A stretch of DNA of 61,504 bases, counting the filler, from Hausera hauseri (taxonomy: Eukaryota): NCBI GenBank assembly GCA_046269625.1. It is 8 parts of 8 records of this genome, joined end to end, with 100 filler letters (N's around TTAATTAATTAA, not from the genome) between each part and the next. Parts side by side here need not be neighbours in the genome. Positions count along the whole stretch, not along the records: positions 41,738 to 47,778 come from JBJURY010149422.1; 7 more parts are not named here. One strand, written 5' to 3'. Positions within the stretch are counted from its first letter, which is position 1; each line of letters starts with the position of its first letter. Positions 41,211 through 61,316 of this stretch are shown here, piece after piece. Below the pieces are notes generated by a model. That model worked only from the letters and a program-made list of their open reading frames with translations, was not told the DNA's origin and made no database searches. The position numbers were made by a program, and so were the translations under genes.

Positions 41211-41637
41211 GCATTGCCGCCCATAACACTCCCGGAGCAGTAAAGAAATGTTTGGGGCCTAGTTTGGGATTTTCCATGGTAAAATCCAGGAAGCTCTTGA
41301 ATATGTCGGTGAGCAGTAACATATCAGTTTTAAGATATTTATCGCTGTAGTCATTAATCGTTTTAAAACTGGAAGGCTGCCATACATTCTGCGCATGATT
41401 ACAATCATTATTGCCAATGTCTGAATTTGGCAGTGATCTGTAAAATTCCTTTTTTTCTGGTACAAAATTTGCATCTAATCTGTCGCATGGTGTAATGTAA
41501 TGATAGGGGAAAACCCCTTTACGCTTTACTAAATCATAAAGTGCTGAAGGGAAAAATTTTCCTGTTTCTTTTAAATTATCTGGCGAATGGTTATTAGCTA
41601 AACCGTCAAATGACGCACTCAGAAACGTGAAGATGTC
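41208..41637 (-). pseudogene. Second, divergent Polinton pPolB fragment in opposite orientation
   Basis: Minus strand KRKGVFPYHYIT and DMLLLTDIFKSF...KHFFTAPGVLWAAML. Confidence 0.8.
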
Positions 41638-41737: not shown

Positions 41738-42290
41738 CACTTTCCTCCATTCCGTTGAAGGATACTTCCTGGAAATTTTCCGTTTTCATAAATTTCCGTA
41801 CTTTTTCCTGTGTCATTTTATTTGTCACTATATCTCCGTGTCCCCTTCTTCTTGATCACTCTATACTGTTTGATACAATACTACTATTATACATAACGAT
41901 ATTTTGGGAGACTGAATCTATTGTAGTGCCCGATTTGTTCCACTTCTATCGAGGCTCAAATTTTTGGGACAACTGACTCCTGTTCCCATTCTGTTTCTTT
42001 TTCCTCTACGCTTGCGACTTCCCCCGTCTTCTTTTCAGATTATCCCCATATTTTCTTTTGACGTTGTATATATCCCATCATGATTCTCCTTTCCTCTACA
42101 ACCTGGTGTAGCACTCCTTTTCGGTATGTTCCCTATGGTGACATCTTGCATAGCTAAGGTTTGTACAATTTCGTCTGATGTTCCCTAGCTGACCACATCC
42201 GTAGAATTTTACTGGATTTCTTTCGGAACACTGCCTGCTTGTGTATCCTTCTTTTCCGCATCCAAAGCATTTAATCGGTCTCAGTGTGGT
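41738..42290 (-). mobile_element. Possible degenerate LTR-retrotransposon gag C-terminus/protease approach
   Basis: Minus-strand K/R/E-rich sequence with a degenerate QIGH knuckle, ending in EVSFNGMEE at the contig edge. Confidence 0.3.
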
Positions 42291-42375
42291 GCAAGTTCTG
42301 TTCGTATGTCTCTCCTTCTGGCATGTCCAACACTTTAATTCACTATATGGTGGTCTAGTTGGCGTCGTCTTAATT

Positions 42376-45300
42376 CTATGAACGAGTTTCCTGATATTTA
42401 GTGTTGAACAAAAGGAAATAATTAAGCAAAACTAGGAGCAGAAGGAGGAGATGGAACAGGTGTAGATTAGATATAGGAACAGCAGGAACTACAGGAGTAA
42501 GAAAAGGGGTCGACGTGTGGATTGGCGAAGTATCATCGACGAAAAAGGGGGGCTTTAAGTTGGTAATATGTACTGTAAGTTCCTTTCCGTCTTTAGAAAT
42601 AATATAGTTATGCAAATGTAGCTGTACCTGTTTATAGCGCCGCACATACCGGGGCTGAAAACCGCACGACGTTTGATTTTTTAGCTATACGAATTTTGCC
42701 AAATACAAGTCTTCGGATAAATATGTTTTGTCTTTGTGAAGTAACCTGCAGAATGCATCCCTGCTAACTGTAATGAAGTGATTCTGCTCTGCCCGTATCG
42801 TTTCATCTGTAGTAGTGTCTTCTAACGCAGTTAGTTCAAATAATGATCGTACAGGAGCTCCGAATAAGGCTTTAGTAGGTGAGCATCCTGTAGAAATAGA
42901 TGAAGTGTTCCGCCAGCCAAGCAGAACAAACGGAAGAAGGTTCGTCAAACTACCGTTGGACTCTGCTTGGATTCTTAGTGACGTTTTCAATGTTCGGTGG
43001 AAACGCTCTAAAAGGCCATTCGATTGGGATGGTAAGGCGTAGTATGTATGTGATGGATCCCCAATCGGTTAACAACGGATATGAACAAGTTGGATTCAAA
43101 CTGTGGACCTTGGTCAGTGATGATGAAGCGAGGTGATCCAAATCTGATATTCCATGTACGAATGAAAACGTCAGCTATAGTGTCGGTATTTGTGCTCCAA
43201 AGAGGGATGGCTTCTGGCCATCTTGAGGAACGGTCTATCATAGTGAGAGTGAATTGATGACCGTTGTCTGGAGGAAGAGGGCCGACAATGTCATTGTGCA
43301 CGGATTCGAAACGCGAAATGCATGGAAAGTGGAACAGTGGTGGCTTTAAATGCTTAGTTGTTTTGTATTTTTGGAAAGCTACGCACTCCTTAACCAATTC
43401 CTGCATATCGGAACGCATTGAGGGCCAAATTACTTGTCTGTGGAGTAAATGAAAAGTGGCTTTAGCACCAGGGTGGTGTAGCGAGTGTGCACTATTAAAT
43501 GCTTGACTTTGCAAAGGTGGTGCAAGAATTATTACGTTATGACCTGGTTTGGAAATGTCTAAAGCCATGCCGTCAACGATTGTGCAAGATCTGAAAGAAT
43601 TCAGCATGTCATGAGGTGGCTGGTTCTGTTGAATTTGAGCTTCCGTAAAAATCGGTGAAAAATTAATCGAACTAATCGACCTAGATAAAAAATTAGCAAC
43701 TACGTTATTAACCACGTTAATATGTTTTATGTCGAAGTTAAATGTCGACAAGTATAATACATGTCGTTTTTGGCGTTTGGAAGGATGTTTCATAGCCATG
43801 ATGTAAAGTAAGGGTTTGTGATCGGTCTGTACGGTAAAATGGCGAGCGACAAGTAGGTGGGAGAAATGCTTTAAAGCGAGAACAATGGCTAATAATTCTC
43901 GATCGAACGTTGAATATCTAATTTCAGTGGGTGTTAGCTTACGAGAGAAAAATTCTAGTGGTTGATTTTCTCCTTTGTGGATTTGGCAAAGCACAGCACC
44001 TACCGCAGTGGTTGAAGCGTTTGTAGTAAGGATAATTTCTGCGTCAGACTTTGGGAAAGCGAGAATGTCGACGGTTTTAATTCCTTCGCGAAGCTTATTA
44101 AACTTATCAACCAATTCAGGTGTCCACTGAATTGGCTGATGTTTCTTGCTGCCGCTTAAGTGTGAAAATGGTGCTGTCAGTTCAGAACAATATAGTACAT
44201 ATTTAGGTACAAAGTGTAGTTGTGAAAATATGGCCATAATATCCATAGATAGAGTGACAGAGCTACTAGCAGCCAAGACCATAAAATATCATAATATCCA
44301 ACGAAAATAAAACTTCAATGCGAAAAAAGATGGTGAGTAACCTGAAAATTCAAAATCACAAAGTTGCAAAACTGTTTATTATTAAAACAATTTTTTTAAT
44401 TTACAAATTAAATTCATTTCTTGTAGCATTGATTTACGAAGTCCCAAAATGCTGGAATCAATATCAGATAAAAAATGGATTTGCAACACTGATCAATTAT
44501 AAGAAAAACGTATTATATGTAAAATATATATCCAACAATAAAATGTGTATACCTGTACAAAATGAAATTGATACTTTCAGTACTAAAAATAATAATAAAA
44601 TATACTGTTTACAACACAAGTCTTTGTAAAACGAATGCAAATGTTTTTTCGACACGTAATAAATACGATAAATGTCCGTCAAAACTTTTTGCCAATCAAA
44701 ACGTAAATGACGAAGTTCGTAATGCACTTAATGTAGTTTAAAATCAGTGCAATTTTATATAATTTATCTGAAATATCGTCGTTGATTTCCACATCTGGAT
44801 GCCATTCTTGGATGCTCATTAACGTCGTGTAGACTGTCGTGAAAGATTCACATAAGCCAAAACACGTTATTATCAGAACGACTGTCAATGAAACATCATT
44901 GCTTGGAGCAGCTGAGCTACGTCGGGAATTATTCCATTTCGTAAATATTCGAAGAACGTGAATTATCGTTCCATTCATGAGAAATAAACACAACAGAGGC
45001 AATAAATAGCATATAATCAAATCAACCGAGTTGATAATTGATAGATAAAACGGATACGAATTTTTAAACTCGGCGATCATCTCGTTTCTGCCCGTGAACT
45101 TGTTGAAATATTTCATTCTTTCATCGATTATCACCAGCGGCAATTTCATTAATCCAGAAACGATAAAAATCACCACGAGTGATAGAATAATTCTCTTTAA
45201 GCCACAGATAATTGGAGTTCGAAAGAGATGTTTAATAGCTATGTATCTTTCCAGCTTTATAAGTATGGCTGTATAGGTCTCAGACGTTTTTATCCAATTT

Positions 45301-47778
45301 ATGGTAAATATAAAATTATCGGCATATAGTAGATACATCTTGACAACAAAAGGTTTTTCTTTACCAAATAACGTTGGAATGGTGTAATAGAAAACGTACG
45401 TTATTAACAGGAGTAAATCTTCAACGGCTAAGCATATTAACAACAATCGTAAAGTTCATTTGCTGATGTTTTCCGAATAATTACAATCAAAATAATATTT
45501 GCCGGAATCCAAATAACTGCAATGAACAAAGTAACTATGTTAATCGTTGAGAAAGTCATTCAACGTCGAATTTTCAAATAAGAAAGAATTAACAATAATC
45601 TTCCAGAATAAACCAAAGAGATTAAGGCAAAATGTTTTTTTTGTTTTTGATAAGCTCGAAGCCGTGGCTATTCGTGGATCATTGTGAATATTTGCAGGCT
45701 AATGACACGATTCTCAAAGCGGGAAATTGGGGCCCGCCATGTCCAACCAAATGGGCCAGAGGGCGCCGGCCGCAGTGAGTACCACAGTCGTGTACCAAGG
45801 AAGTTGCGCATTTCAGTGGTCGTACGTGGTAATTAGATATTCTTACAAGCTTCAATCCGGTCTGGTTGGGGGGAGTAGCCGTCTTGTGAAATAACGTGGC
45901 CCAAAAAGTTGATGCGCTTTTTGAAGAAATAGAATTTGTTGAAATTGACTTGGAGATTATGGTGATTAAGGCGTTGGAATATTGCATAAAGATGTTCCTG
46001 ATGATGTTTGGCTGAAGGCGAAAAAATCAGAATATCATCGATGTAAAGGTGCGCAAACGGGAAATCTGAGAGAATTGAATCAGTGTGTCGCTGAAAAGTT
46101 TGTGCGGCATTTCGCAAACCGAATGGCATAAACAGGTACTCGTAAAGACCAAAAGGAGTAGTGACAGCAGTCTTTTCTATGTCTTCGGGTGCAACTGGTA
46201 TTTGATGATATGCATTAGCCAAATCGGTCGTCGAATAAATTGCGGTTGACTTAAGGCGATGAAAGATATCCTTGATGAGTGGCAGGGAGTACGCATCCAT
46301 GATAGTCAAGTTGTTCAACTGTCAGTAATAACCACATGGTCTAAAAGTTCCGTCCTTTTTTCTACGACATGTAAAGGTGATGACCAAGGAGATTTGGAAC
46401 GGCGTGCAATGCGGGAGCGTTCTAGTTCAAGAAATTCGGCTTCTACGGCCTGTCTACGACGAGGTGGCAGTGGTCGTACCTTTTGCCTTATTGGTCGTTG
46501 ATGCTGTGTAACTATGCGATGTAAAGTACTATTTGCAGGGGTAAACGTACGATCTTTTTTAAGTACGTGTGAACATGATGTGTTAACGAATTGCTGCAAA
46601 GTTGCAGGCAACTGTGATAGATTCGGTGATGATGGTGAAACAGCTTGAGTAGTAGCGGATGCAATTTGTGAATTGTTTGCTGATGTAAAGTCAATTGGTA
46701 TTTGGTGTAAGGTGGTCGAATTGAAAATGGTGTTGTATGAAGTGATTTCGTCGAGTGAATTAACGTTGGTGACAGTATCACAATAAACGACATCAAACTT
46801 CGACTGATTATAAATATTATGATTTAAAAATTTACGAAATGAAATATTGTTACGGAAATTCGAATTAGTTTTTGATTTCCCCAAAATTGATCTCCACGTC
46901 TCGATCGACTGCGCGGTAGTCCAAATGCTATTTATGTGCTTGCTAACGATGCCAGTGGTTTCACTTCGCAGACATTGTTGACTGCAGTCAACTAATAAAT
47001 TATAATGCGATAAAAAATCAGAACCTAGAATTGCCGTCTGGACATTGGCAACTGTGAACGTCCAGTGGAAAGTTGAAGGAAATTTTGGTAAGGTAAAAGA
47101 TAGTTTAACCATGCCGGAAATGTGCAGCGGTACACCTGAATCGGTGTATAAAGACTTGATTCTGAATGGTGAATTTTGGATAGGAAAAGTTTGTGGCAAT
47201 AAAGAAATCGCTGCACCTGTATCAATGAGGAAATCAACGGATTGCGCCGTAGGAGCGGTGATTGCAACCTTTAGAGTAAAGACAGCAAAAGAGGCGTGTC
47301 GGCATTCAGAAGGTGAAACTGTGCCTTTGCCAGAGATTGCGGTGAGTTCTGGCGGCAAACTTAGTTTTTTTGGAAAGGTGAACTAGGACGACTTATAGAA
47401 AAAGAGGTAGTTCGTCAGTCGTTCGTATCAGTAATTTAAGTGCAGCCTGGAATACATTTACCGGCTTGATTTTTAAACTTTGCGTGGTAAATACAAACAA
47501 CAGTGTCCAAAAAGAAGTATTTATTATAAAACCTGCACGCTAAGCAGGATTTTTGGCACTTTTGATGAATCTGCTGGGATAATATCAGATAGACGACCGC
47601 GGGGGTGGTGGTGACCGGTTTCTAGGTACAGAATTGGCGCAATCAGCGACAAAATCACCTCGACGGGAGAGCGAAAGTTTATTCACTTTGTTATTAATAT
47701 TGTTAATTGCTGCGTGTAGTGCTGTATTTTCGGCACGTAGCTAATTTAACTGTTGTTCTATCGATGTGTTGTTGCTTT
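42376..47778 (-). mobile_element. Ty3/gypsy LTR retrotransposon (CsRn1-like) gag-pol, degenerate, interrupted at ~44200-45835
   Basis: Gag CHCC motif VCIYHAKF..QAGKCIPGC (~47440-47500); AAAAAAC slippery site at 47364-47370; protease FLIDTGA; RT PWSSPLH, MPFGLRNAAQTFQ, YIDD; RNase H YSTFDRELLA; integrase HHPG, DIVGPLP, TDQGPQFES. Confidence 0.92.
44583..45559 (-). pseudogene. Intronless rhodopsin-class GPCR (FMRFamide-receptor/Srw-like), probably pseudogenised
   Basis: ATG 45559 gives TM1 IAVIWIPANIILIVII; frameshift ~45450 into TM2 LICLAVEDL; ERYIAI; TM5 YLLPLLCLFLMN; TM7 NFVIY. TGA at 44679 replaces the expected R of GKKF(R)RTF; the frame continues through a Cys-containing helix 8 to TAG at 44583. 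Confidence 0.85.
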
Positions 47779-48039: not shown

Positions 48040-48690
48040 GTGACAAAATCATTGATCAACGAATCAACATCAGGTTTTTGGTGAAGCTCGGGATATTACC
48101 GATATGTTAACGGCTNNNNNNNNNNGAAAACATCAATATTTAAGTGGATTAAGCGTTTTAAAGATGGTCGAGAAGATGCCAAGGACGATGCAAGGCAAGG
48201 ACGACCTTCAACCTCGTGTGTTGATGAAAACATCGATCGTGTGCGGTCCCTTGTCCTTGCTGATCGCGGAAAAACCGTGCGAATGATAGCTGATGAACTC
48301 AATATAGGTTAATCATCGTTAAACACAATGCTAACTGAACATTTGGATTTGAAAAAACCCTGCAAAAATTGTGGCCAAGTTGCTGATACGGGATCAAAAG
48401 TTGATGACGGTTGAATGTGTTACCGACTGGAAAAATTCAGTTGAAAAGGATGACAGATTCTTAAACAGGGTTATTACTGGAGGTGAGTCATAGTTTTACG
48501 AGTATGACCTTGAACTAAAATCACAAGGCAAGGAGTGGAAAGGAAAGAATGAGCCCCGAACAAAAAAATCAAGGAAAAGCAGATCGGAAATCAAAGTCAT
48601 GCTCCTGCTTTTCTTTGATGTGTAAGGTGTTGTCAGTAAAGACAACTTTGTTCGGCAAAGTCGGCGGATCGAAATCCTGAATCTCACTTG
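48040..48690 (+). mobile_element. Tc1/mariner (mariner-type) transposase remnant
   Basis: DQRINIRFLVKLG, FKWIKRFKDGREDAKDDARQGRPSTS, VITGGES*FYEYD (cf. TGDEWxYxYD), KVMLLLFFD. Confidence 0.88.
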
Positions 48691-48768: not shown

Positions 48769-51700
48769 TTATTTTTGCTGCTCCATTACTTTCCCCTCTT
48801 CTTTATGATCATTGTTCAGTCTTTTCAACCATTCCACTCTTCTATGAATCATTCTACCATCTTCCATGTTTTTCAACTCCCACTGATGCGGCGAAATTTT
48901 TCGAATTATCTGATACGGTCCTTCGAACTGATAAACATCTTTTCTTCTTTTCTGAGGATCTACTTTCATGAACACTATCTGTCCAATTTCAAAATTTCGT
49001 TTCCCTCTATTCTCCCCTCGAAATTTTCCATTCGGTTAGCTGCCTCTGTAATATGTCTTGTAATACTTTGTGTCAGTTTGCCATTATCGGTCTGTCTTGT
49101 TACTCCTCCAGCTGCGTGCAAATTTCTCGTTTAAGAACTATTTCAGACGGTTAGTGTTTCGTTGTGGTTTGTACTGTGGCATTTATCGAATATTCAATTT
49201 TTGGTAGTGAATTTCACCATGCTCTACCGAACGTTCCTTCTACACTGGTTACCAATATATCCCGAACAGTTTGAATGACCTTCACTGCCAGCCGTTAGAT
49301 TGATGTTGAAACACATTGTTGATTATTTGTTTACTTCCACATTCTTTGCAAAACTCTCCAAATTTGCTTTCCGAAAAACACTTTCCGTTGTCGATCAAAA
49401 TTGACTTCGGTTTTCCAAATCTGTAAATCCATTTCACCGATATGCACTAGATAACTGTTTCTTCCTTCTGCGTCCGTATTTCTGTTAAACTTATTGTGGT
49501 GCTTACATTGGCCCATCAAATAATTTGCATGGTAAAAACTGTAATGTCGATGTTGTTTGAATATGCAGATTGGTTTTTCCATATTTGCATGTTTTCAATA
49601 TATTGTATAAAAGTCATATAATTTGATTGTGTTTTCTTTCGCTAAAAACGTTAATTCAAACGGATTTTTCAGGCAAATTTTCTAGGCATAATTTAAATTA
49701 ATTATAAAACTGGAGATTCAAATGATCAATCTATCGACTTCCATATGAATTCATTGTCATTTTTGAATATGAAATATCACATGTATCTGTCACCTATTGC
49801 CAATAATTCCGATAAACAAGATTTGGCTCGTGATTTACCAGTAAATTACATTTACCGGCTTTGAAAATTAATCAAAAATAACCAACATATATGGGCACAT
49901 GCTATCTTTGTCTCCGATATACACAGTATCCAATACAAGTTGGTCCAGAAAATTATCACTCTTAATAGGGATGAACTTTTCTTTGTCTTTTCTGATGTAA
50001 ACATTCTTCACATTTTCCAATGATATCTTCTACGTCTTGATAAACCGGGAACTGTGAAGTGATGTTGAATATATCGTTTTGTCATCTTCATACCCAGATG
50101 ACATAGATCCGCATGTATCTTGCAGATGAAATCTTTCTGCATATTTTTTGGAATTATCGGTAGTCTGTAGTTCAGATCTTTATATACTGAAAATCGTCCG
50201 TCATTTCCAGTTTATCGACCATACTGAGAATCTCTTTCGAGAGTTGTACACTTTCCGCTGTTGGGCCGTCTAACCGACATTTTATTTGTTGCATTTCTCT
50301 ACATTTTTCATGTTCGTCTTTTGTCCATTGCAAGGTTGACATGGCCTATAATGAATTAATGTGCTTTACTCGCGCCTTTTTATGTTTCGGATCAGAATGT
50401 CTTGTCTGGCATAGAACACACATCACCGCAAAACCGCGTCAATCCATCTGCATTTCCATTTTGTTCGCCCTTCCTATATTCTAATGAAACATTAAAATCT
50501 GTCGTGTTTTCCTGTCACATCTGGAATTTCGGTGTTATTCGTTTGGTAGCGGTTTTCGTGTATACTAATGCCCTATGATCTGTTCTAGCAGTGATGTGCT
50601 TACCATACAGATACTGTTTAAAATGTAACATAAAACTCTTGTAATGCCAACAGTTCCTTTCTTGTAAGGCAGTAGCCTTTCTCAAAAGATGAGAGTGTTC
50701 TAGACGTATGCGCTACTACCTTTTCTTCATTTTCTATTTTTTGGCTAAGTACTACTCCTATTTCACCAAACGATGCATCTGTATCCAAAATAAAATCCTT
50801 CGTTGAATCCATAATATTGTCGCGTCATATAGCTTCAATTTCAATAGCTTGAAACTTTCTTCTCACTTCCTTGACCAAAATAACTCTCTACACGTACTAT
50901 TGCAAGCCTGATGTAACGGCGCCGCAATGAGCGCGTAATTCTTGATAAACCTTCTGTAATAGTTGGCCAGGCCTAAAAATGCTCTCAACGACCTCGTACA
51001 CTTTGGAAGTGGGAAATTCTGGATCTCTTTTACTTTTAGTTGATTTGTTGACACTCCCTGATTACTAATGGTACGTCCAAGAAATGTCAACTCCGAAACA
51101 TCAAATCTACATTTTTGAGGATTCACTTTCAGATTTGCATTTTTCAATCTTTTCGTTACCTCTTCTAGTAGTTTGCAATGTTCTGAAATCGTTTTTGAGT
51201 AAATCAGCACATCATATAAGTATATGGCAACACCGGCAAACAGTAAGTCTTCGAACAGGGTATTCACCTATCGCTGAATAGTTCCAGGAACCTTTAAGAG
51301 GTTAGATGGTACACGATTGAAACAATATTGTTGTGATTTCGTGCAAAAGGCTGTTTTTTCATGGAAGTCTTCATCCAACGCGACTTGATATGTTTTACTG
51401 AGGTCTATACTTGAGAAAATTCTTAAAACGACTAACGCATCAAATAAGGTCTGACTTTCCGGAATTGGAAAAAAATTTTCCTTTGCTATTTCATTTAACT
51501 TCCTAAAATCCAAACAAATCCGGATTCCCTCATCTTGCTTTTGAGAGACCACTAAAGGCGAATTCCATTTACTTTTGCATTTCCGAATAATGTCCGATTT
51601 CTTCAGGTATTTCAAAAATTCATCAATTTTACCTTCCAGATGTACTGATTGCCTTCTAGGATTCAAAAAAATTGGTTTAACCTCAGTTTCGATTCTATGT

Positions 51701-51896
51701 TTTACCGGATCCTTAGACGCTAAATCGTAATCATGTTTCATAAACATCTCGTCATACTCTTTTACAATTTCCACTAATTGACCCTCTGCGATTTCCGGCT
51801 TTCCCGTAGTTGTCACCGCTCCTATTTTTTTCATTCGAGATCCACTAATGTCAGTTTTCATTAATTTCATACCAAATGCCTTTAAAATATCGATAC
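48769..51896 (-). mobile_element. Second Ty3/gypsy pol (RT, RNase H, integrase), degenerate
   Basis: WNSPLVV, RICLDFRKLN, FLGLANYYRRFI, LDTDAS, YCLTRKELLA, integrase core remnants, FEGPYQII. Confidence 0.9.
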
Positions 51897-51996
51897 NNNN
51901 NNNNNNNNNNNNNNNNNNNNNNNNNNNNNNNNNNNNNNNNTTAATTAATTAANNNNNNNNNNNNNNNNNNNNNNNNNNNNNNNNNNNNNNNNNNNN

Positions 51997-53248
51997 AAAT
52001 ATGGTTTGCGAGTTTAAGGACTAGGTAAAATCAATAAGTCCGCCTTTCGTTGTATATGCTGACTTCGAATCGGTTCTGTGCCCTAACGATAAAGTCAAGC
52101 ATATTCATCTGCCTGCTGTAGCCGGTCTCTTGTTAGTTTCACCAACGGGTATTGAATATAGACAATTTGTAGGTGAAAATTCCATAGTTGAGCTTCTGGC
52201 CTGTTTAGAGGAAATTGTTAAAACATTAGCTTTCCTCTAATATGAAAATGCGAAAAACCAATGATTCCGTTAACATCAGCTGAATGGTTTCAGTTTAAAA
52301 ACGACACAGAATATTACCTTTGCCACGAACAGAAAACTACATTTGTTCGAGATCACTGCCATATTACAGGTAAATACTTAGTCCCAGCATGTAATACATG
52401 TAACTTGTTTATATAGATTAGATATAATTTACCAATCTTGTTTCACAATTTGCGTGGATATGACCTTCATCATATCTTAAAACATGTAGTAAGTAAATTC
52501 AGAAGTTTGAAATTAAGTTTGATTCCGCAAACAACTGAAAAGTTCCTAACAATGAATGCAATAATCCGCTGTTCGGATAAAAAGTCAGTATCTATTCGGT
52601 TTATCGACTCGTTGCAGTTCCTGCGGCTTCACTGAAGACTTTGGCTTCCAACATAGATAGTTACCCATTTACTGGGTCGGCTTTTCCTTTTGACATTATT
52701 AAGGGAAAAGGTATTTTTCCTTATACTGCAGTAAAATCTTTCAGTGACTTGCAGTCTATTAAGGAGTTGCCACCGAAATGGGATGGAGTTAGTAATACCG
52801 ATTATGAGGAAGCACAACTGGTTTGGTCAAAATACAGTTATAGCTGTCTTTTAAATTACATGCTACTATATATGAAGTTCGTCATCTACTTGTTAGCTGA
52901 TGTTTTCGAGCGGTATAGAAAGGAGGTTAAGATGCAAGATGTATTAGAGGCCGTTAGTTTCCTTTCTATTCAAGATTTATCTTGGGAAACTGCACTGAAA
53001 ACGAGCCTGTGCCGCACTGAACTCATACAGGACCCTGAAATGTAGAATTTCTTTCAATCGAATATTCGCGATGGTATGACTTTTGTAAATAAGCATATAG
53101 TTATCTCCGATGAAAGCACTAGTCTCTTGTATATGGATGTAAATAATTTGTACGGCTCGGCTTTATCGCAACAACTGCCATTTGCGAATTTGACATGTAT
53201 TCATGATGATGATAAACTAACTACCCTAATTAAACAATTGCCCTATAT
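51997..53248 (+). pseudogene. Maverick/Polinton pPolB fragment, degenerate
   Basis: VVYADFES, DHCHITGKY..ACNTCNL, FHNLRGYDLH, FIDSLQF, KGIFPY, LLADVFERYR, YMDVNNLYGSALSQQLP. Confidence 0.9.
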
Positions 53249-53928
53249 CATTGCCTTCCAACCAAAACAAGGCTGTGGACCCCAAATAGAAGAATTTTCC
53301 CCCATGGACCCCTGCAATATACAGCTGTCTGAAGGCTTTTAAATATGGTAAAAAACTAAAAACAATTGTTTCCTAATAATGATAATTTAAATATTACAGT
53401 TTAATCATTTAATTATAATTAAAAAATTACATCAGTAAATTTTAATGGGTGGAAAAAACCAGAAAAGTATGAAATGCTAGCTGCTTTATTGAGATGACAA
53501 CTACGTATTCAATGCGAAACTTGAGCTTCCTTGTGATTACAAATCAAATTCAAGCGAGGTTCAATGGTTGACAAGCTCACACGCATCTCTTCATCAACTA
53601 TCAATAGGCTGCTACGTTTTTTCGATTTTATTTCAGTTAAGGTTGAAAAGCTTTGTTCGCAAAGGTATGAGCTTCCGAACGGTAACAACAAGCTAATTGC
53701 TTCTTTTGCAAGCAGGGGATATTGTCCATGCAACAAGATCCAAAATTCAGAGAGCTCTTTTTCAGAAAACAGATTTTTAAAGACGACGTCGTTTCGTAGG
53801 TCTATCAAATTTTCCTCGACTTCTGGTTCCAGATTGGTATTTTTAAACATTTCAAAAATCTTTCGTGGAACCAATGAGATTCTCTGTGGACCCGTTGCGG
53901 TCCAGTGGACCACGGTTGGAAAGGACTG
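53249..53928 (-). mobile_element. Internally deleted hAT (Buster/Charlie-type) DNA transposon
   Basis: Imperfect TIRs CATTGCCTTCCAACC / GGTTGGAAAGGACTG; transposase C-terminus YPLLAKEAISLLLPFGSSYLCEQSFSTL...AQVSH at 53509-53850. Confidence 0.88.
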
Positions 53929-54489
53929 GTCTAAACCGAGGTTTGAAGCGAATTAAGGTCACCAAATTTTATTACTCAACTGCAGCTACAGTAACAGTCT
54001 CTACGGTTATATTATATCTACATAATAATCGGTACAGAAAAAACAATAGTTACATGGCAATACCTCACAGGATAATTACAAAAAAAACGATTACTACACA
54101 ATTCAAAAAAAAAAACAAAAGATACATGACCCAACCCCATCACTGCGAGTTCGCATACTCGAGTGAGCATTTCTTTGCTCAAAAAAAATTAATTATACAA
54201 ATTGTCACAAATTCCCTCAATTAACTTTGGCCCGAATTTGGCGGTTTCCATAATTTTCATAACATTTTCACATAAAAGTTTATCGTTAAATACCGCCTAC
54301 GTAATTCAACGGATGAACAGAAATCAGATTTAATACAAACGCCAGTCGTACCTAATGTGGTATGGAGCCGTGAAAATGTGATTTCCTTTTATTACAAACA
54401 TAAACATTCGAAACCACGGCTTAAAAATTCAACAAGGAACGGAAATAGAGTTTGTAAATTGTATCATACGATATCATGAATTTAAAGAA

Positions 54490-54790: not shown

Positions 54791-55299
54791 GAACTAACGA
54801 ATATTCGTCTGATATTCCGTCCAAAATTTCTTCAATTTGTATAAATTATGGACTGAATATTTTTTCGTTCACGAGAACATCAATGGCAATTGAAAATAAC
54901 AATAGAAATGATCGATTTGAAATTTGACCAAATCTCAAAAATCACAAAGGTGGGATATTTGAACAAGTGCCGAATATTTATATTTTGGCCGTTTTAACAC
55001 ATCGCTGACCGATCACGAAGTAATTCGGGTATGAACAGTCCAAAATTCATTTACCAATTGTTTCGCGAACGTATTTAATTGTTACTGTGTCATCAAACAA
55101 AAAATATTTAACGCAGAATCCAGTATTCAAACGTCCGTATGCTACAGAATTTAAAAAAGAAATTGTCACAAAATTCATAATAAGCCACAGAATCTTTCCA
55201 TTTAAGTTTAACAAAATAATTAAAATCAAAAAGACAATTGACCAAATTAATTTACATAGATAAATTATACGAAAGAATAAACAGAAAATCAAATCTTAC

Positions 55300-55875
55300 T
55301 TTGTTTCTCGTACAGTCCAATACCCTCATTGTCAATAAACTGACCAACGTAATCGTCGATTTTATCATACAAGTTGTCAATGAAATTCTCATAATCCTTG
55401 TCACCCGCAAATTTACACTCGGCCGATTTCACCCAAAGACTGAACGAACTTGTAGCAATTCCTTGTGCATTGCGACAAATCAACGCGATTAATTGACGGA
55501 ATCCGTCGGGAGTAAACCAGTGACCGATGAGATCATTTCGCAAATTGTGATAGAACAAATCGAACATACCCGACAAATACGCGTCGTTTTCACGGATGAT
55601 TTTCAATACGAGTGGTCCCTCCTTGGGTGACTGACAGAAACGATTGAACAAATCAATGAGCGGCTGTTTGTCAGTTGCTTGACAAATCATGGCGACAATT
55701 TTGACCAGAATCATGATATTTGATGTTTCTGGTGGATAATGAATGTTGTTCCACATTCCCTCAAATGCCTCTGTGAATTCAGGAGAAATCAACCCACTTG
55801 ATGGGCACATAACTTTGTGGTACGTGTTGAAAGCAGCAGTTCTACAGGAATCACTGCAGTACATTTCACTGCAGC
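55300..55875 (-). CDS. SMYD5: SET and MYND domain protein 5, internal exon
   Basis: Acceptor ttttttgcacAG| at 55876 and donor |GTAAGA at 55299; motifs YCSDSCR..AF..YHKVMC, HYPPET, WFTPDGFRQL, NAQGIATSSFSLWV, NEGIGLY. Confidence 0.85.
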
Positions 55876-56126
55876 CTGTGCAAAAAACAATTAACACGAG
55901 GTCAACTAATCTAATTAATGATGTCACTAATAAATAAAAGGATTTATTTAAAGTAATACTCCCCGATTGCAGTAGTTGTTATAAACAGCAGACATGATCT
56001 GTTTCTTTAGCTGAACGTGTTCCTGANNNNNNNNNNNNNNNNNNNNNNNNNNNNNNNNNNNNNNNNNNNNTTAATTAATTAANNNNNNNNNNNNNNNNNN
56101 NNNNNNNNNNNNNNNNNNNNNNNNNN

Positions 56127-56304: not shown

Positions 56305-57220
56305 TCACTCAATCTGCGATGCAAATATCCAACTCGGTGTAATGTATCCGTGCCACATGACAAGATATTGTTTATTCGAACCTTTGCCTTGTGAACGTAG
56401 AATTTCCTGAATACGATACACATCAGGTTTTTCCGGTAGTACTTGCAGTTCCTGGTCGTAAAATTTACCACGTATTTTGTCGCCATTTTCATCTTCTAAA
56501 ACGTACATAACAGGTGCTTGTTTTGTGTTAATTGATGAAATGCGGAAAACCTCATCGCTCCAGTTATGATTGAAATTCTTAATGAATGGTGTCGTACTCA
56601 GATTTGAAATATGTACATAATAAGCGATTTTATACTTGGGACGACGTCGTCGTTGTTGTGTTCGGTTTTGATAAAACCACATGTCCAAATCATTGGTTAT
56701 ATTAACCGGTTGTAATCCCTTGATGCCACGATGTGTTGAATGGTTGTATGCATGAATAATATCCGGTAGTACATCTACCCAACGTTTATTGCCGTTTCGT
56801 TAAGAATTTGGTTAGTCGACCGCGTAATGTTCGACTAAATCGTTCAACGAGTGCAGCCTTCTATTGGGAAAACACCGAGTAGTGGTTTATGCCGAACCGC
56901 CTTAAAACGAATGCGACATGGGAGTTGTAAAATTCCTTGCCCAAATCCGTTTGTAAATGTTTCGGTGGTTGGTCTATTAATATGTGAACGGCGTCGGCAA
57001 TCTCTTTACCGGATTTGGGTTTAACGGCAATTTTACGTGCAAAACGACTAAACACATTAATACACGTCAGCATGTACCTATTCCCATCGTTGATGCTGGC
57101 GTACGGATTCATTTACAACAGATCCATTTGCCATACATTATTTACGCCTGCAGCACGGTATGCACGAGTTGGAAACCGTTTTCTTATCGGCTTGTGAAGG
57201 CTGTATGCCAACTGTTTCCC
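56305..57220 (-). pseudogene. Polinton retroviral-like integrase with C-terminal chromodomain, degenerate
   Basis: LHKPIRKRFP, VWQMDL, LQTDLGKEF, KAALVERF (DDE), NWSDEVF, GKFYDQELQ, chromodomain VYRIQEIL...YLVMWHGY..SWI. Confidence 0.9.
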
Positions 57221-57875
57221 CAACCAACGTTGAGTTTGTCGCCGAATCTGTTTGACAATCTTTTCCAGTTTGTCGCGCCAGTATACCCGACGGGATAACG
57301 CGGGTCGAACTACACGTCGCCCATCGGTGTCGTCGATGGTGTCGCGCAATGTTTGATTAAATCGTTCAACGAGTGCAGCCTTGTATTGGGAAAACACCGA
57401 GTAGTGGTTTACGCCGAACCGTTTCAAGACCGTTGCAACGTGGGCCTTGTATAATTCCTTACCAAAATCCATTTGTAAATGATTCGTTTGTAAATGTTGT
57501 TGTTGTATCAGTGTCTGAACACCGTCGGCAATCTCTTTACCGGATTGAGATTTCATGCCAATTTCACGTGCAAAGCAACTAAACACATCAACGCATGTCA
57601 GCACGTATCGATACCCATCGTTGATGCTGGGGTACGGAATCATTTCCATCAGATCCATTTTCCATACACTATTTACACCGGCAGCATGGTATGCACGAGT
57701 TGAAAACAGTCTTATCGGTTTGTTTAGGGTGTATGCTAACTGTTTCCCGAGCCAACGTTGGGTCTGTTGCCGAGCTTGTTTGACAGTCTTTGCCAGTTTG
57801 TCGACGCCAGTATACGCGACGGGATGACGCGAGTCGAACTACACGTCGCCCATCGTTGTCGTCGATGATGTCGTT
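56830..57875. repeat. Diverged ~525-bp tandem duplication of the integrase 5' half
   Basis: Matching anchors at 56838/57359, 57119/57650 and 57304/57833. Confidence 0.9.
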
Positions 57876-60588: not shown

Positions 60589-60785
60589 AAGTGTCGACTG
60601 AATATTGAGTTACAAGGATACAAGGAAAAAGCCGGTATAAAAAGCCCGATTTGGCGTGTAGCTGAAGCACATTTTAATTATCAATACATTTTGTTGTTTT
60701 ACAGTTCTTCTTCTTCTTCTTCTTTCATTAATCCAATTAACGAGTATAAATATACGTGTAATTTTAAAAAATAGGCATAAGAATA

Positions 60786-61316
60786 ATGATAATGAATGAC
60801 ATAAAGATTATATTAACAGACGAAAATGTCTTTGTATCGAGACGTGTTACATCAAACAGTACAGGCTACGATGTGTTTTCCAATATCAATACGACAGTTG
60901 CAGACAGCACAATCAAATGCATAACGACTGGGATTCGATTGGCGATTTCACCCGGTTACTACGGTCAACTTTTATCGAAAAGCGGACTGGCAAAGCTCGG
61001 ACTGACAGTTGTGGGCGGCGTCATTGACTCCGATTTTCGTGGTGAAATTAAGGTTTTGGTGGAAAACCAATCCAGGGAACCGTATGCTTTTCCCAAAGGC
61101 AGTGCAATCGCACAAATCGTTTTTCTTCTCTGTGAAGAGGTGGAATTCAATGTAATGTCACCGAAACGATGGGGACTGTTTTGCGTTGATGAATCGACAC
61201 GAAATGAACGCAAAGAATTTGGCTTTGGTGAATATGGACAAAACCACCTATGTTTAATTTGTTATATTAGTTATTTTGCTTGTGTTATAAACAAAAATGA
61301 TTTTATACATAAGTAA
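60786..61316 (+). CDS. DUT: Trimeric dUTPase
   Basis: Motif 1 STGYDV, motif 2 GQLLSKSGLA, motif 3 GGVIDSDFRGEIKV, motif 4 AIAQIV, degenerate motif 5 TRNERKEFGFG; intronless; TATA ggtataaaaag at ~60634. Confidence 0.92.
   Translation: MIMNDIKIILTDENVFVSRRVTSNSTGYDVFSNINTTVADSTIKCITTGIRLAISPGYYGQLLSKSGLAKLGLTVVGGVIDSDFRGEIKVLVENQSREPYAFPKGSAIAQIVFLLCEEVEFNVMSPKRWGLFCVDESTRNERKEFGFGEYGQNHLCLICYISYFACVINKNDFIHK

Follow-up and report, generated by a model that had tools for sequence, protein, structure and literature searches.

Structure of the interrupted gypsy element

The stretch of DNA analysed here (the window; 61,504 nucleotides, filler included) is from Hausera hauseri, assembly GCA_046269625.1, and all of the finding lies in one contig free of Ns, at positions 41738-47778 (JBJURY010149422.1), which is bounded by artificial linkers. 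This contig carries a decayed gypsy retrotransposon and, inside its pol gene, a gene for a G protein-coupled receptor (GPCR) (Table 1). Read along the minus strand, the retrotransposon presents a gag knuckle, protease, reverse transcriptase (RT), RNase H and integrase in that order, and the spacing of the knuckle is a mark of the CsRn1 clade (PMC2582038; here and below, statements on articles cited by PMC number refer to excerpts of them). Judged by these signatures the host element is a CsRn1-type gypsy.

An earlier reading of the DNA from its sequence alone (the original prediction) had described a complete, intronless GPCR locus that replaced part of a gypsy pol gene, and proposed capture of a host transcript by template switching. 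Its general layout holds: the seven-transmembrane gene is co-oriented with pol on the minus strand (Pfam 7tm_1, E 1e-13), RT is on one side of it and RNase H and integrase on the other by Pfam, and there is no N between 41738 and 47778, so that both junctions are in a single contig. The segment of pol with the pattern P.P...L..FLG that was thought to be missing is present, however, as the RT frame, read beyond the stop at 45835-45833, includes the FLG motif and reaches 45794; pol picks up again at 44219, with nothing replaced. The tblastn alignment of one related protein (P0014) has residue 212 ending at 45794 and residue 214 starting at 44219, a second (P0035) places residues 151 and 153 at the same two edges, and seven of the eight full-length pol relatives span both sides of the insert. 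No pol residue has been lost, and the element is continuous but interrupted at a single point.

The empty site itself is represented in the sequencing run (X1) that provides all of the copy and empty-site evidence, and which is composed of short contigs. Among 15 listed joints of 37 found, at least four skip the insert, with X1 contigs joining the pol halves directly. The best supported of these (44218->45790) is present in two contigs, its shorter side being 51 letters long, and its skip of 1571 corresponds to a 1566 bp unit plus five bases; two others, with no more than 26 letters, are weak evidence by themselves. Because of these joints and the continuity in tblastn, the two pol halves belong to one family with an empty site, and the arrangement that the original prediction named as fatal to it, unrelated elements on either side of a resident GPCR, does not apply.

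The insert is thus somewhat shorter than the 44200-45835 first given for it, and extends from 44221 to 45786. The target-site duplication is 5 bp long with four of five positions identical, and the inverted repeat at the ends of the unit stops after 4 bp; a repeat search found none in direct orientation shared by the two ends. Given the base composition, TG...CA ends together with a duplication of at least 4/5 would arise by chance with a probability of 7e-5 at a fixed register, and of about 1e-3 when 10-20 registers are allowed. We regard these ends and the duplication as the footprint of an integrase, and are confident, short of certainty, that the insertion is of the integrase type. The CsRn1-like elements in PMC2582038 all leave 4-bp duplications, in contrast to the 5 bp here, and we infer that the inserting integrase is probably not that of the host but from another lineage.

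Both parts of the host pol are decayed, with a frame change near 46320 and the stop at 45835-45833 in the 5′ part, and a further frame change near 43025 in the 3′ part. The LTRs (long terminal repeats) of the host element were not found in the contig, and a blastn search of the insert against the window yielded neither a match to a host LTR nor a second copy of the insert. A separate gag-like piece (41738-42440, minus strand), with several Cys/His knuckles by eye and no Pfam match, adjoins the 3′ end of the host gypsy; its summed depth (111,000-276,000) exceeds that of the rest of the contig.

Table 1. Features of the interrupted gypsy element and of the unit inserted in it (window coordinates).
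Feature	Coordinates	Strand	Evidence
gag CHCC knuckle, CX2HX9CX3C	47442-47495	-	Pattern match; CsRn1-clade signature
Host pol 5′ part: protease, RT through FLG motif	45792-47382	-	Open reading frames, Pfam RVP (below cut-off), RVT_1, tblastn
Target-site duplication, right copy, GTCGT	45787-45791		Skip of 1571 = 1566 + 5
Inserted unit, 1566 bp, TGTG...CACA ends; probable solo LTR carrying the receptor	44221-45786	-	Joints, ends, X1 depth, motifs
GC-rich 5′ end of unit, abundant repeat terminus; putative start of U3	45690-45786	-	X1 depth and loose ends; inner limit approximate
GPCR N-terminus and TM1, in the other frame; ATG at 45559 a candidate start only	45440-45559	-	tblastn with P0122-P0125, hydropathy
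GPCR TM2-TM7, 258 codons, flatworm FMRFamide-receptor-like	44682-45455	-	Pfam, sequence searches, tree
Premature stop 44681-44679 and C-terminal tail	44586-44681	-	tblastn with P0124 and P0126, which run through the stop
AT-rich 3′ part; putative R-U5	44221-44585	-	Motifs and sequence; LTR anatomy in PMC3601003
Target-site duplication, left copy, GTAGT	44216-44220		Sequence comparison
Host pol 3′ part: RT thumb, RNase H, integrase	42505-44219	-	Pfam, tblastn

The receptor gene and the ends of the unit

Contrary to what had been supposed, the receptor is not complete. The Pfam 7tm_1 match of its main open reading frame (ORF) covers profile positions 21-260 of 260 and the first transmembrane segment (TM1) is in a different frame from TM2-TM7, at 45535-45461 by tblastn of P0122-P0125, with a frameshift near 45460 between them; the stop follows just after TM7. 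Hydropathy detects six segments, these being TM1 and five in the main ORF. Broken in this way on either side of TM2-TM7, this copy is a pseudogene.

A phmmer search with the receptor gave 78 matches, the ten best at 25-42% identity, and the named best matches are proteins of cestodes, trematodes and monogeneans. In a quick tree of 50 rows, from which P0146 (short) and the 28 weakest matches were left out, the receptor is on a long branch in a clade of 11 rows that includes all five of the named flatworm receptors (SH-aLRT, an approximate likelihood-ratio support value, 98). On this sequence comparison it is a member of a flatworm FMRFamide-receptor-like clade of the rhodopsin family, 'FMRFamide receptor' being a database annotation. 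Among other searches, a word-index search had no match at E <= 0.001 among 827 candidates, a metagenome scan with the receptor gave 162 pattern matches of which none was confirmed, and the ESM Atlas returned only generic 7tm_1/Srw clusters. An Rfam search of the insert produced one chance-level match and none near the gathering score, and a metagenome scan with the LTR-end pattern had 0 matches.

The gene has no introns, as originally described, but this carries little weight as evidence of an RNA step, because two long ORFs elsewhere in the window are also unbroken. One is an axonemal dynein heavy chain ORF of 1850 codons (7304-12856, plus strand), and the other an ENaC/ASC channel ORF of 663 codons (13707-15698, minus strand); compared with other flatworms, this genome may have unusually few introns. 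The seven best matches of the dynein ORF are to flatworms, at 70-75%, and since the best matches of both dynein and receptor are flatworm proteins, the source organism is probably itself a flatworm.

The two ends of the unit differ in character. X1 contigs were aligned to 44184-45823 at 80% identity, and their summed depth, which is a rough guide and not a copy number, is 25,123 in the bin at the TG end (45724-45778) and 227 in the next (45669-45723), with no other bin wholly inside the insert above 227. This is also the GC-rich region noted originally upstream of the gene (63% GC at 45741-45800). Loose ends, for which 6 of 77 rows are shown, include 88 contigs that depart exactly at 45786 (agreement 0.38), with 24 more at 45787, 24 at 45777 and one at 45783, and thus 137 contigs in four listed rows leave at or near the TG end into varied flanks. 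The majority letters beyond 45786 and 45777 include a C run immediately external to the terminus. Read on the minus strand, this is a G-rich tract ahead of the TG, the position that a polypurine tract occupies relative to a 3′ LTR; such a polypurine-tract-like flank is in two of the four rows and, being a majority line of low agreement, is suggestive rather than exact, and the row at 45787 is AT-rich without the C run. On the inner side, 57 contigs have loose ends at 45736 and 19 at 45743, where many relatives are longer than this copy, and one contig matches both sides of 45736. That the TG end is an LTR terminus is well supported, and we take it as the putative start of U3 (the unique 3′ region).

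At the CA end, the AATAAA reported 3′ of the gene is the only one in the insert; it is at 44380-44375, 155 bp from the end, with a GT-rich run behind it, and there is a weak TATA-like match at 44530-44524. TG/CA ends, AATAAA and a GT-rich run are among the conserved motifs of LTRs (PMC3601003). Summed depth in the outermost bin (44184-44238) is 2325, which its pol bases alone can account for, though a short abundant match at the CA end may be masked there.

Several distinct X1 contigs match the gene and both of its non-coding flanks at 86-96% (8 of 828 pieces are listed for the insert region). Five contigs share a difference at 44621 and four share one at 45411, a single 216-base contig links TM1 to upstream sequence out to 45693, and some pieces depart from the window sequence at the sites of the frameshift and the stop, which means that these breaks are not common to all copies. 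Between 44954 and 45118 there is no contig cover at 80%, a hole that proves nothing. In the 40 rows shown of 101 found, 4 coding differences are synonymous and 22 non-synonymous (n=26), with pN/pS of 1.6 and no synonymous excess (p 0.87); one synonymous difference (45411) is outside the stretches used for site counts. These differences appear to follow the pattern expected between dead copies of one mobile unit, with no purifying selection seen. No RNA run is among the sequencing runs listed with a match (one run is listed), which says nothing on expression.

Origin of the inserted unit

The host gypsy is the landing site, and the carrier of the receptor is a second unit. On balance, we consider this unit to be a solo LTR of a second LTR element, its U3 holding the flatworm GPCR, nested in the CsRn1-type pol. 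We favour this reading because of the TG...CA ends, the 5-bp duplication, the repeat terminus at the TG end and the AATAAA near the CA end, and a solo LTR also fits because the inverted repeat is only 4 bp and the ends have no direct repeat. That the whole unit is an LTR, and that it has moved more than once, we infer from one run of short contigs. In a plausible history, a host receptor gene would have entered U3 in an LTR lineage of low copy number, downstream of ~100 bp that this lineage has in common with an abundant LTR family and upstream of the polyadenylation signal, and reverse transcription would have copied the receptor along with the LTR to several sites. One such element would then have integrated into the gypsy pol by means of an integrase leaving 5-bp duplications, recombination between its LTRs would have taken out the interior, and the receptor copy would have decayed without selection. 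It is very likely that a retroelement moved this GPCR, and to that extent the original prediction of retrotransposon-mediated capture stands, but a template-switch capture by the surrounding gypsy is unsupported. A template switch may have been the original entry of the gene into the LTR.

Several observations weigh against a solo LTR that travelled with its receptor. The target-site duplication carries one mismatch, and the TATA-like match sits in AT-rich sequence. Just ~50-100 bp at one end of the unit is abundant, whereas summed depth near the CA end is low (39-142 at 44239-44403). The CA end therefore cannot be where the abundant LTR family terminates on its 3′ side, and one has to assume an LTR that is either chimeric or of a separate, low-copy kind. 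A loose end at 44221, with varied flanks or a primer-binding site, is absent from the loose-end rows shown, and no element with two such units was seen in this one run of short contigs. The coding pieces differ slightly less than two overlapping non-coding pieces (6.9% and 10.4%, p 0.07), and the X1 variants may instead be alleles from a pool of animals, or paralogues resident in the genome.

Best placed among the other explanations, if on the whole unlikely, is that the unit is mobile and was inserted by an integrase but is not a true solo LTR. It could be a one-off or DNA-type element with TG...CA ends, of which Ginger-like elements are an example, or an aberrant complementary DNA in which the start of an LTR was fused to host gene DNA that ends by chance in CACA. 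The sharp difference in abundance of the two ends favours this reading, and neither a two-LTR element nor a primer-binding site is seen in the X1 rows shown. However, Pack-TIR and Ginger-like elements have terminal inverted repeats of tens of bases and here the repeat does not go beyond 4 bp, while the purine-tract-like flank at the TG end and the LTR-like distance of the AATAAA from the CA end are properties of an LTR.

A history in two steps is a weaker contender, and one we think quite unlikely. Here, an ordinary solo LTR would have been in the gypsy first with a receptor copy later replacing most of it, the related contigs would be resident paralogues or alleles, and the receptor would never have travelled in an LTR. 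The match of one end to an abundant LTR-like terminus is consistent with this, and resident receptor families are often multi-copy. But low-copy sequence comes as close as 18 bp to the CA end (bin 44239-44293), so that no remnant of the abundant family could fit there, and working resident paralogues should give a synonymous excess, which is not seen. The receptor copy also has no poly(A) tail, and its flanks share no direct repeat longer than an 11-bp A-run, a length matched or exceeded in 19/500 shuffles, at the upper edge of chance.

An assembly chimera, with a receptor contig wrongly placed within a repeat by a short-read assembler, is very improbable. The window does consist of small contigs and of scaffolds with gaps, abundant repeats flank the insert, and no independent contig crosses a filled junction among those listed (8 of 828 pieces for the insert region and 8 of 17,384 for the contig-wide set). 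Even so, a misjoin would not yield exact continuity of pol, a 5-bp duplication and TG...CA ends together, nor put an LTR-like terminus exactly at the junction. Least probable of all, and hardly to be entertained, is that the gypsy's own RT switched template to a GPCR mRNA and back, for which one can cite the co-orientation of the intronless receptor with pol and the membership of both pol halves in one family, but which would have replaced a part of pol, as in the cases of PMC5131818, where here pol is fully kept, the ends and duplication are of the integrase type, and the upstream end is a repeat terminus and not a 5′ untranslated region.

Four other candidates were set aside. The last 120 bp of the insert, where the pol frame is open back to 44288, were considered by eye as an exon of a neighbouring gene until the duplication set the boundary. 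A Helitron was rejected on the ends of the unit, a DNA transposon with terminal inverted repeats and cargo on the 4-bp inverted repeat where tens of bases are expected, and an L1-type retrocopy on the missing poly(A) tail, with the A-run being the longest direct repeat between the gene flanks.

Returning to the solo LTR, we give an even chance to the broader proposal that a flatworm LTR lineage carries a GPCR gene inside its LTR, in which case each transposition would double the gene and each solo LTR would leave behind a copy equipped with a promoter and poly(A) signal. A receptor in this position would persist when recombination removes the remainder of the element, and this makes for a testable route by which receptor genes could multiply in flatworms. 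The copies seen look dead, and any influence on the functional receptors of the host would be hypothetical. We also note, as a caution, that a gene found inside a pol can be a nested insertion and not one captured by that element.

Neighbouring sequences and comparison with known systems

The window is a string of unrelated small contigs, divided by seven N-TTAATTAATTAA-N linkers (27156-56126), and parts on either side of a linker are not genomic neighbours. Several of these parts include other mobile elements. A second gypsy RT fragment (RVT_1, Pfam) is at 50863-51948 on the minus strand, a candidate mariner-like transposase remnant was noted by eye at 48100-48640 (plus strand), and a hAT dimerisation domain (Pfam) is at 53509-53952 (minus strand). 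The segment 56127-61504 has Pfam matches to an integrase (rve, 57116-57838) and a dUTPase (60768-61313) along with other broken ORFs, and by eye appears to be the decayed remains of a Polinton- or adintovirus-like element. Two further sets of ORFs, at 40274-41634 and 52581-53045, resemble fragments of protein-primed polymerases by eye, and those submitted to Pfam had no match. At 55289-55978 (minus strand), an ORF of 229 codons has a MYND finger by Pfam and is probably part of a SET/MYND gene.

The host element shares with the CsRn1/PwRn1 clade the CHCC gag knuckle and the protease-RT-RNase H-integrase order (PMC2582038). Members of the clade, which is also characterised by a tRNA-Trp primer site, leave duplications of 4 bp, where the one around the insert has 5 bp. 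The insert itself can be compared with LTR-mediated retroposition (PMC5131818), in which a host gene copy is likewise flanked by LTR-retrotransposon sequence and further rounds are possible. In the Drosophila cases of Tan et al. 2016, as far as the excerpt goes, part of the element's ORFs is always replaced, none is a continuous element interrupted by an insertion, and the junctions show microsimilarity (PMC5131818); in the gypsy described here nothing is replaced, the repeat seen at the outer junctions is a target-site duplication, and the cargo is in a separately integrated unit.

Cargo of other kinds and in other positions is familiar from LTR elements. Extra ORFs of plant elements are mostly between pol and the 3′ LTR (PMC7264820). 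The giant gypsy elements (Burro) of planarians are similar in that flatworm LTR elements have acquired host-like protein domains, but their cargo is internal, in the polyprotein or accessory ORFs (BIR, BCL2-like, ankyrin and MATH domains), and the excerpt of PMC6431247 names no GPCR or LTR-borne gene. Helenus and Ajax are closer in being non-autonomous elements with host-derived sequence in the LTR, with solo LTRs flanked by 5-bp duplications, although what they carry is derived from small RNAs (tRNA or 5S) and not from a ~1-kb protein gene (PMC10886601). An exact-word search of the open-licence PMC and bioRxiv literature, a search that does not extend to supplements with repeat libraries, listed no report of an LTR that contains a GPCR.

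Among LTR-borne genes, the standard example is the retroviral sag. In mouse mammary tumour virus (MMTV), sag is mostly in U3 and most genomic copies of it are solo LTRs, LTRs being ordinarily non-coding (PMC4667437). The unit described here, if an LTR, resembles this in containing a protein gene, and differs in that sag encodes a viral superantigen in a mammalian retrovirus, whereas the gene here is a decayed host-type receptor of the rhodopsin family in an LTR-like unit of an invertebrate, for which the two-LTR element is unseen. If the solo-LTR reading is correct, the arrangement would be like that of sag but with a host receptor, and would represent either a route to receptor-family expansion or an element-borne signalling gene; a host-type receptor as the cargo of an LTR would be the new aspect.

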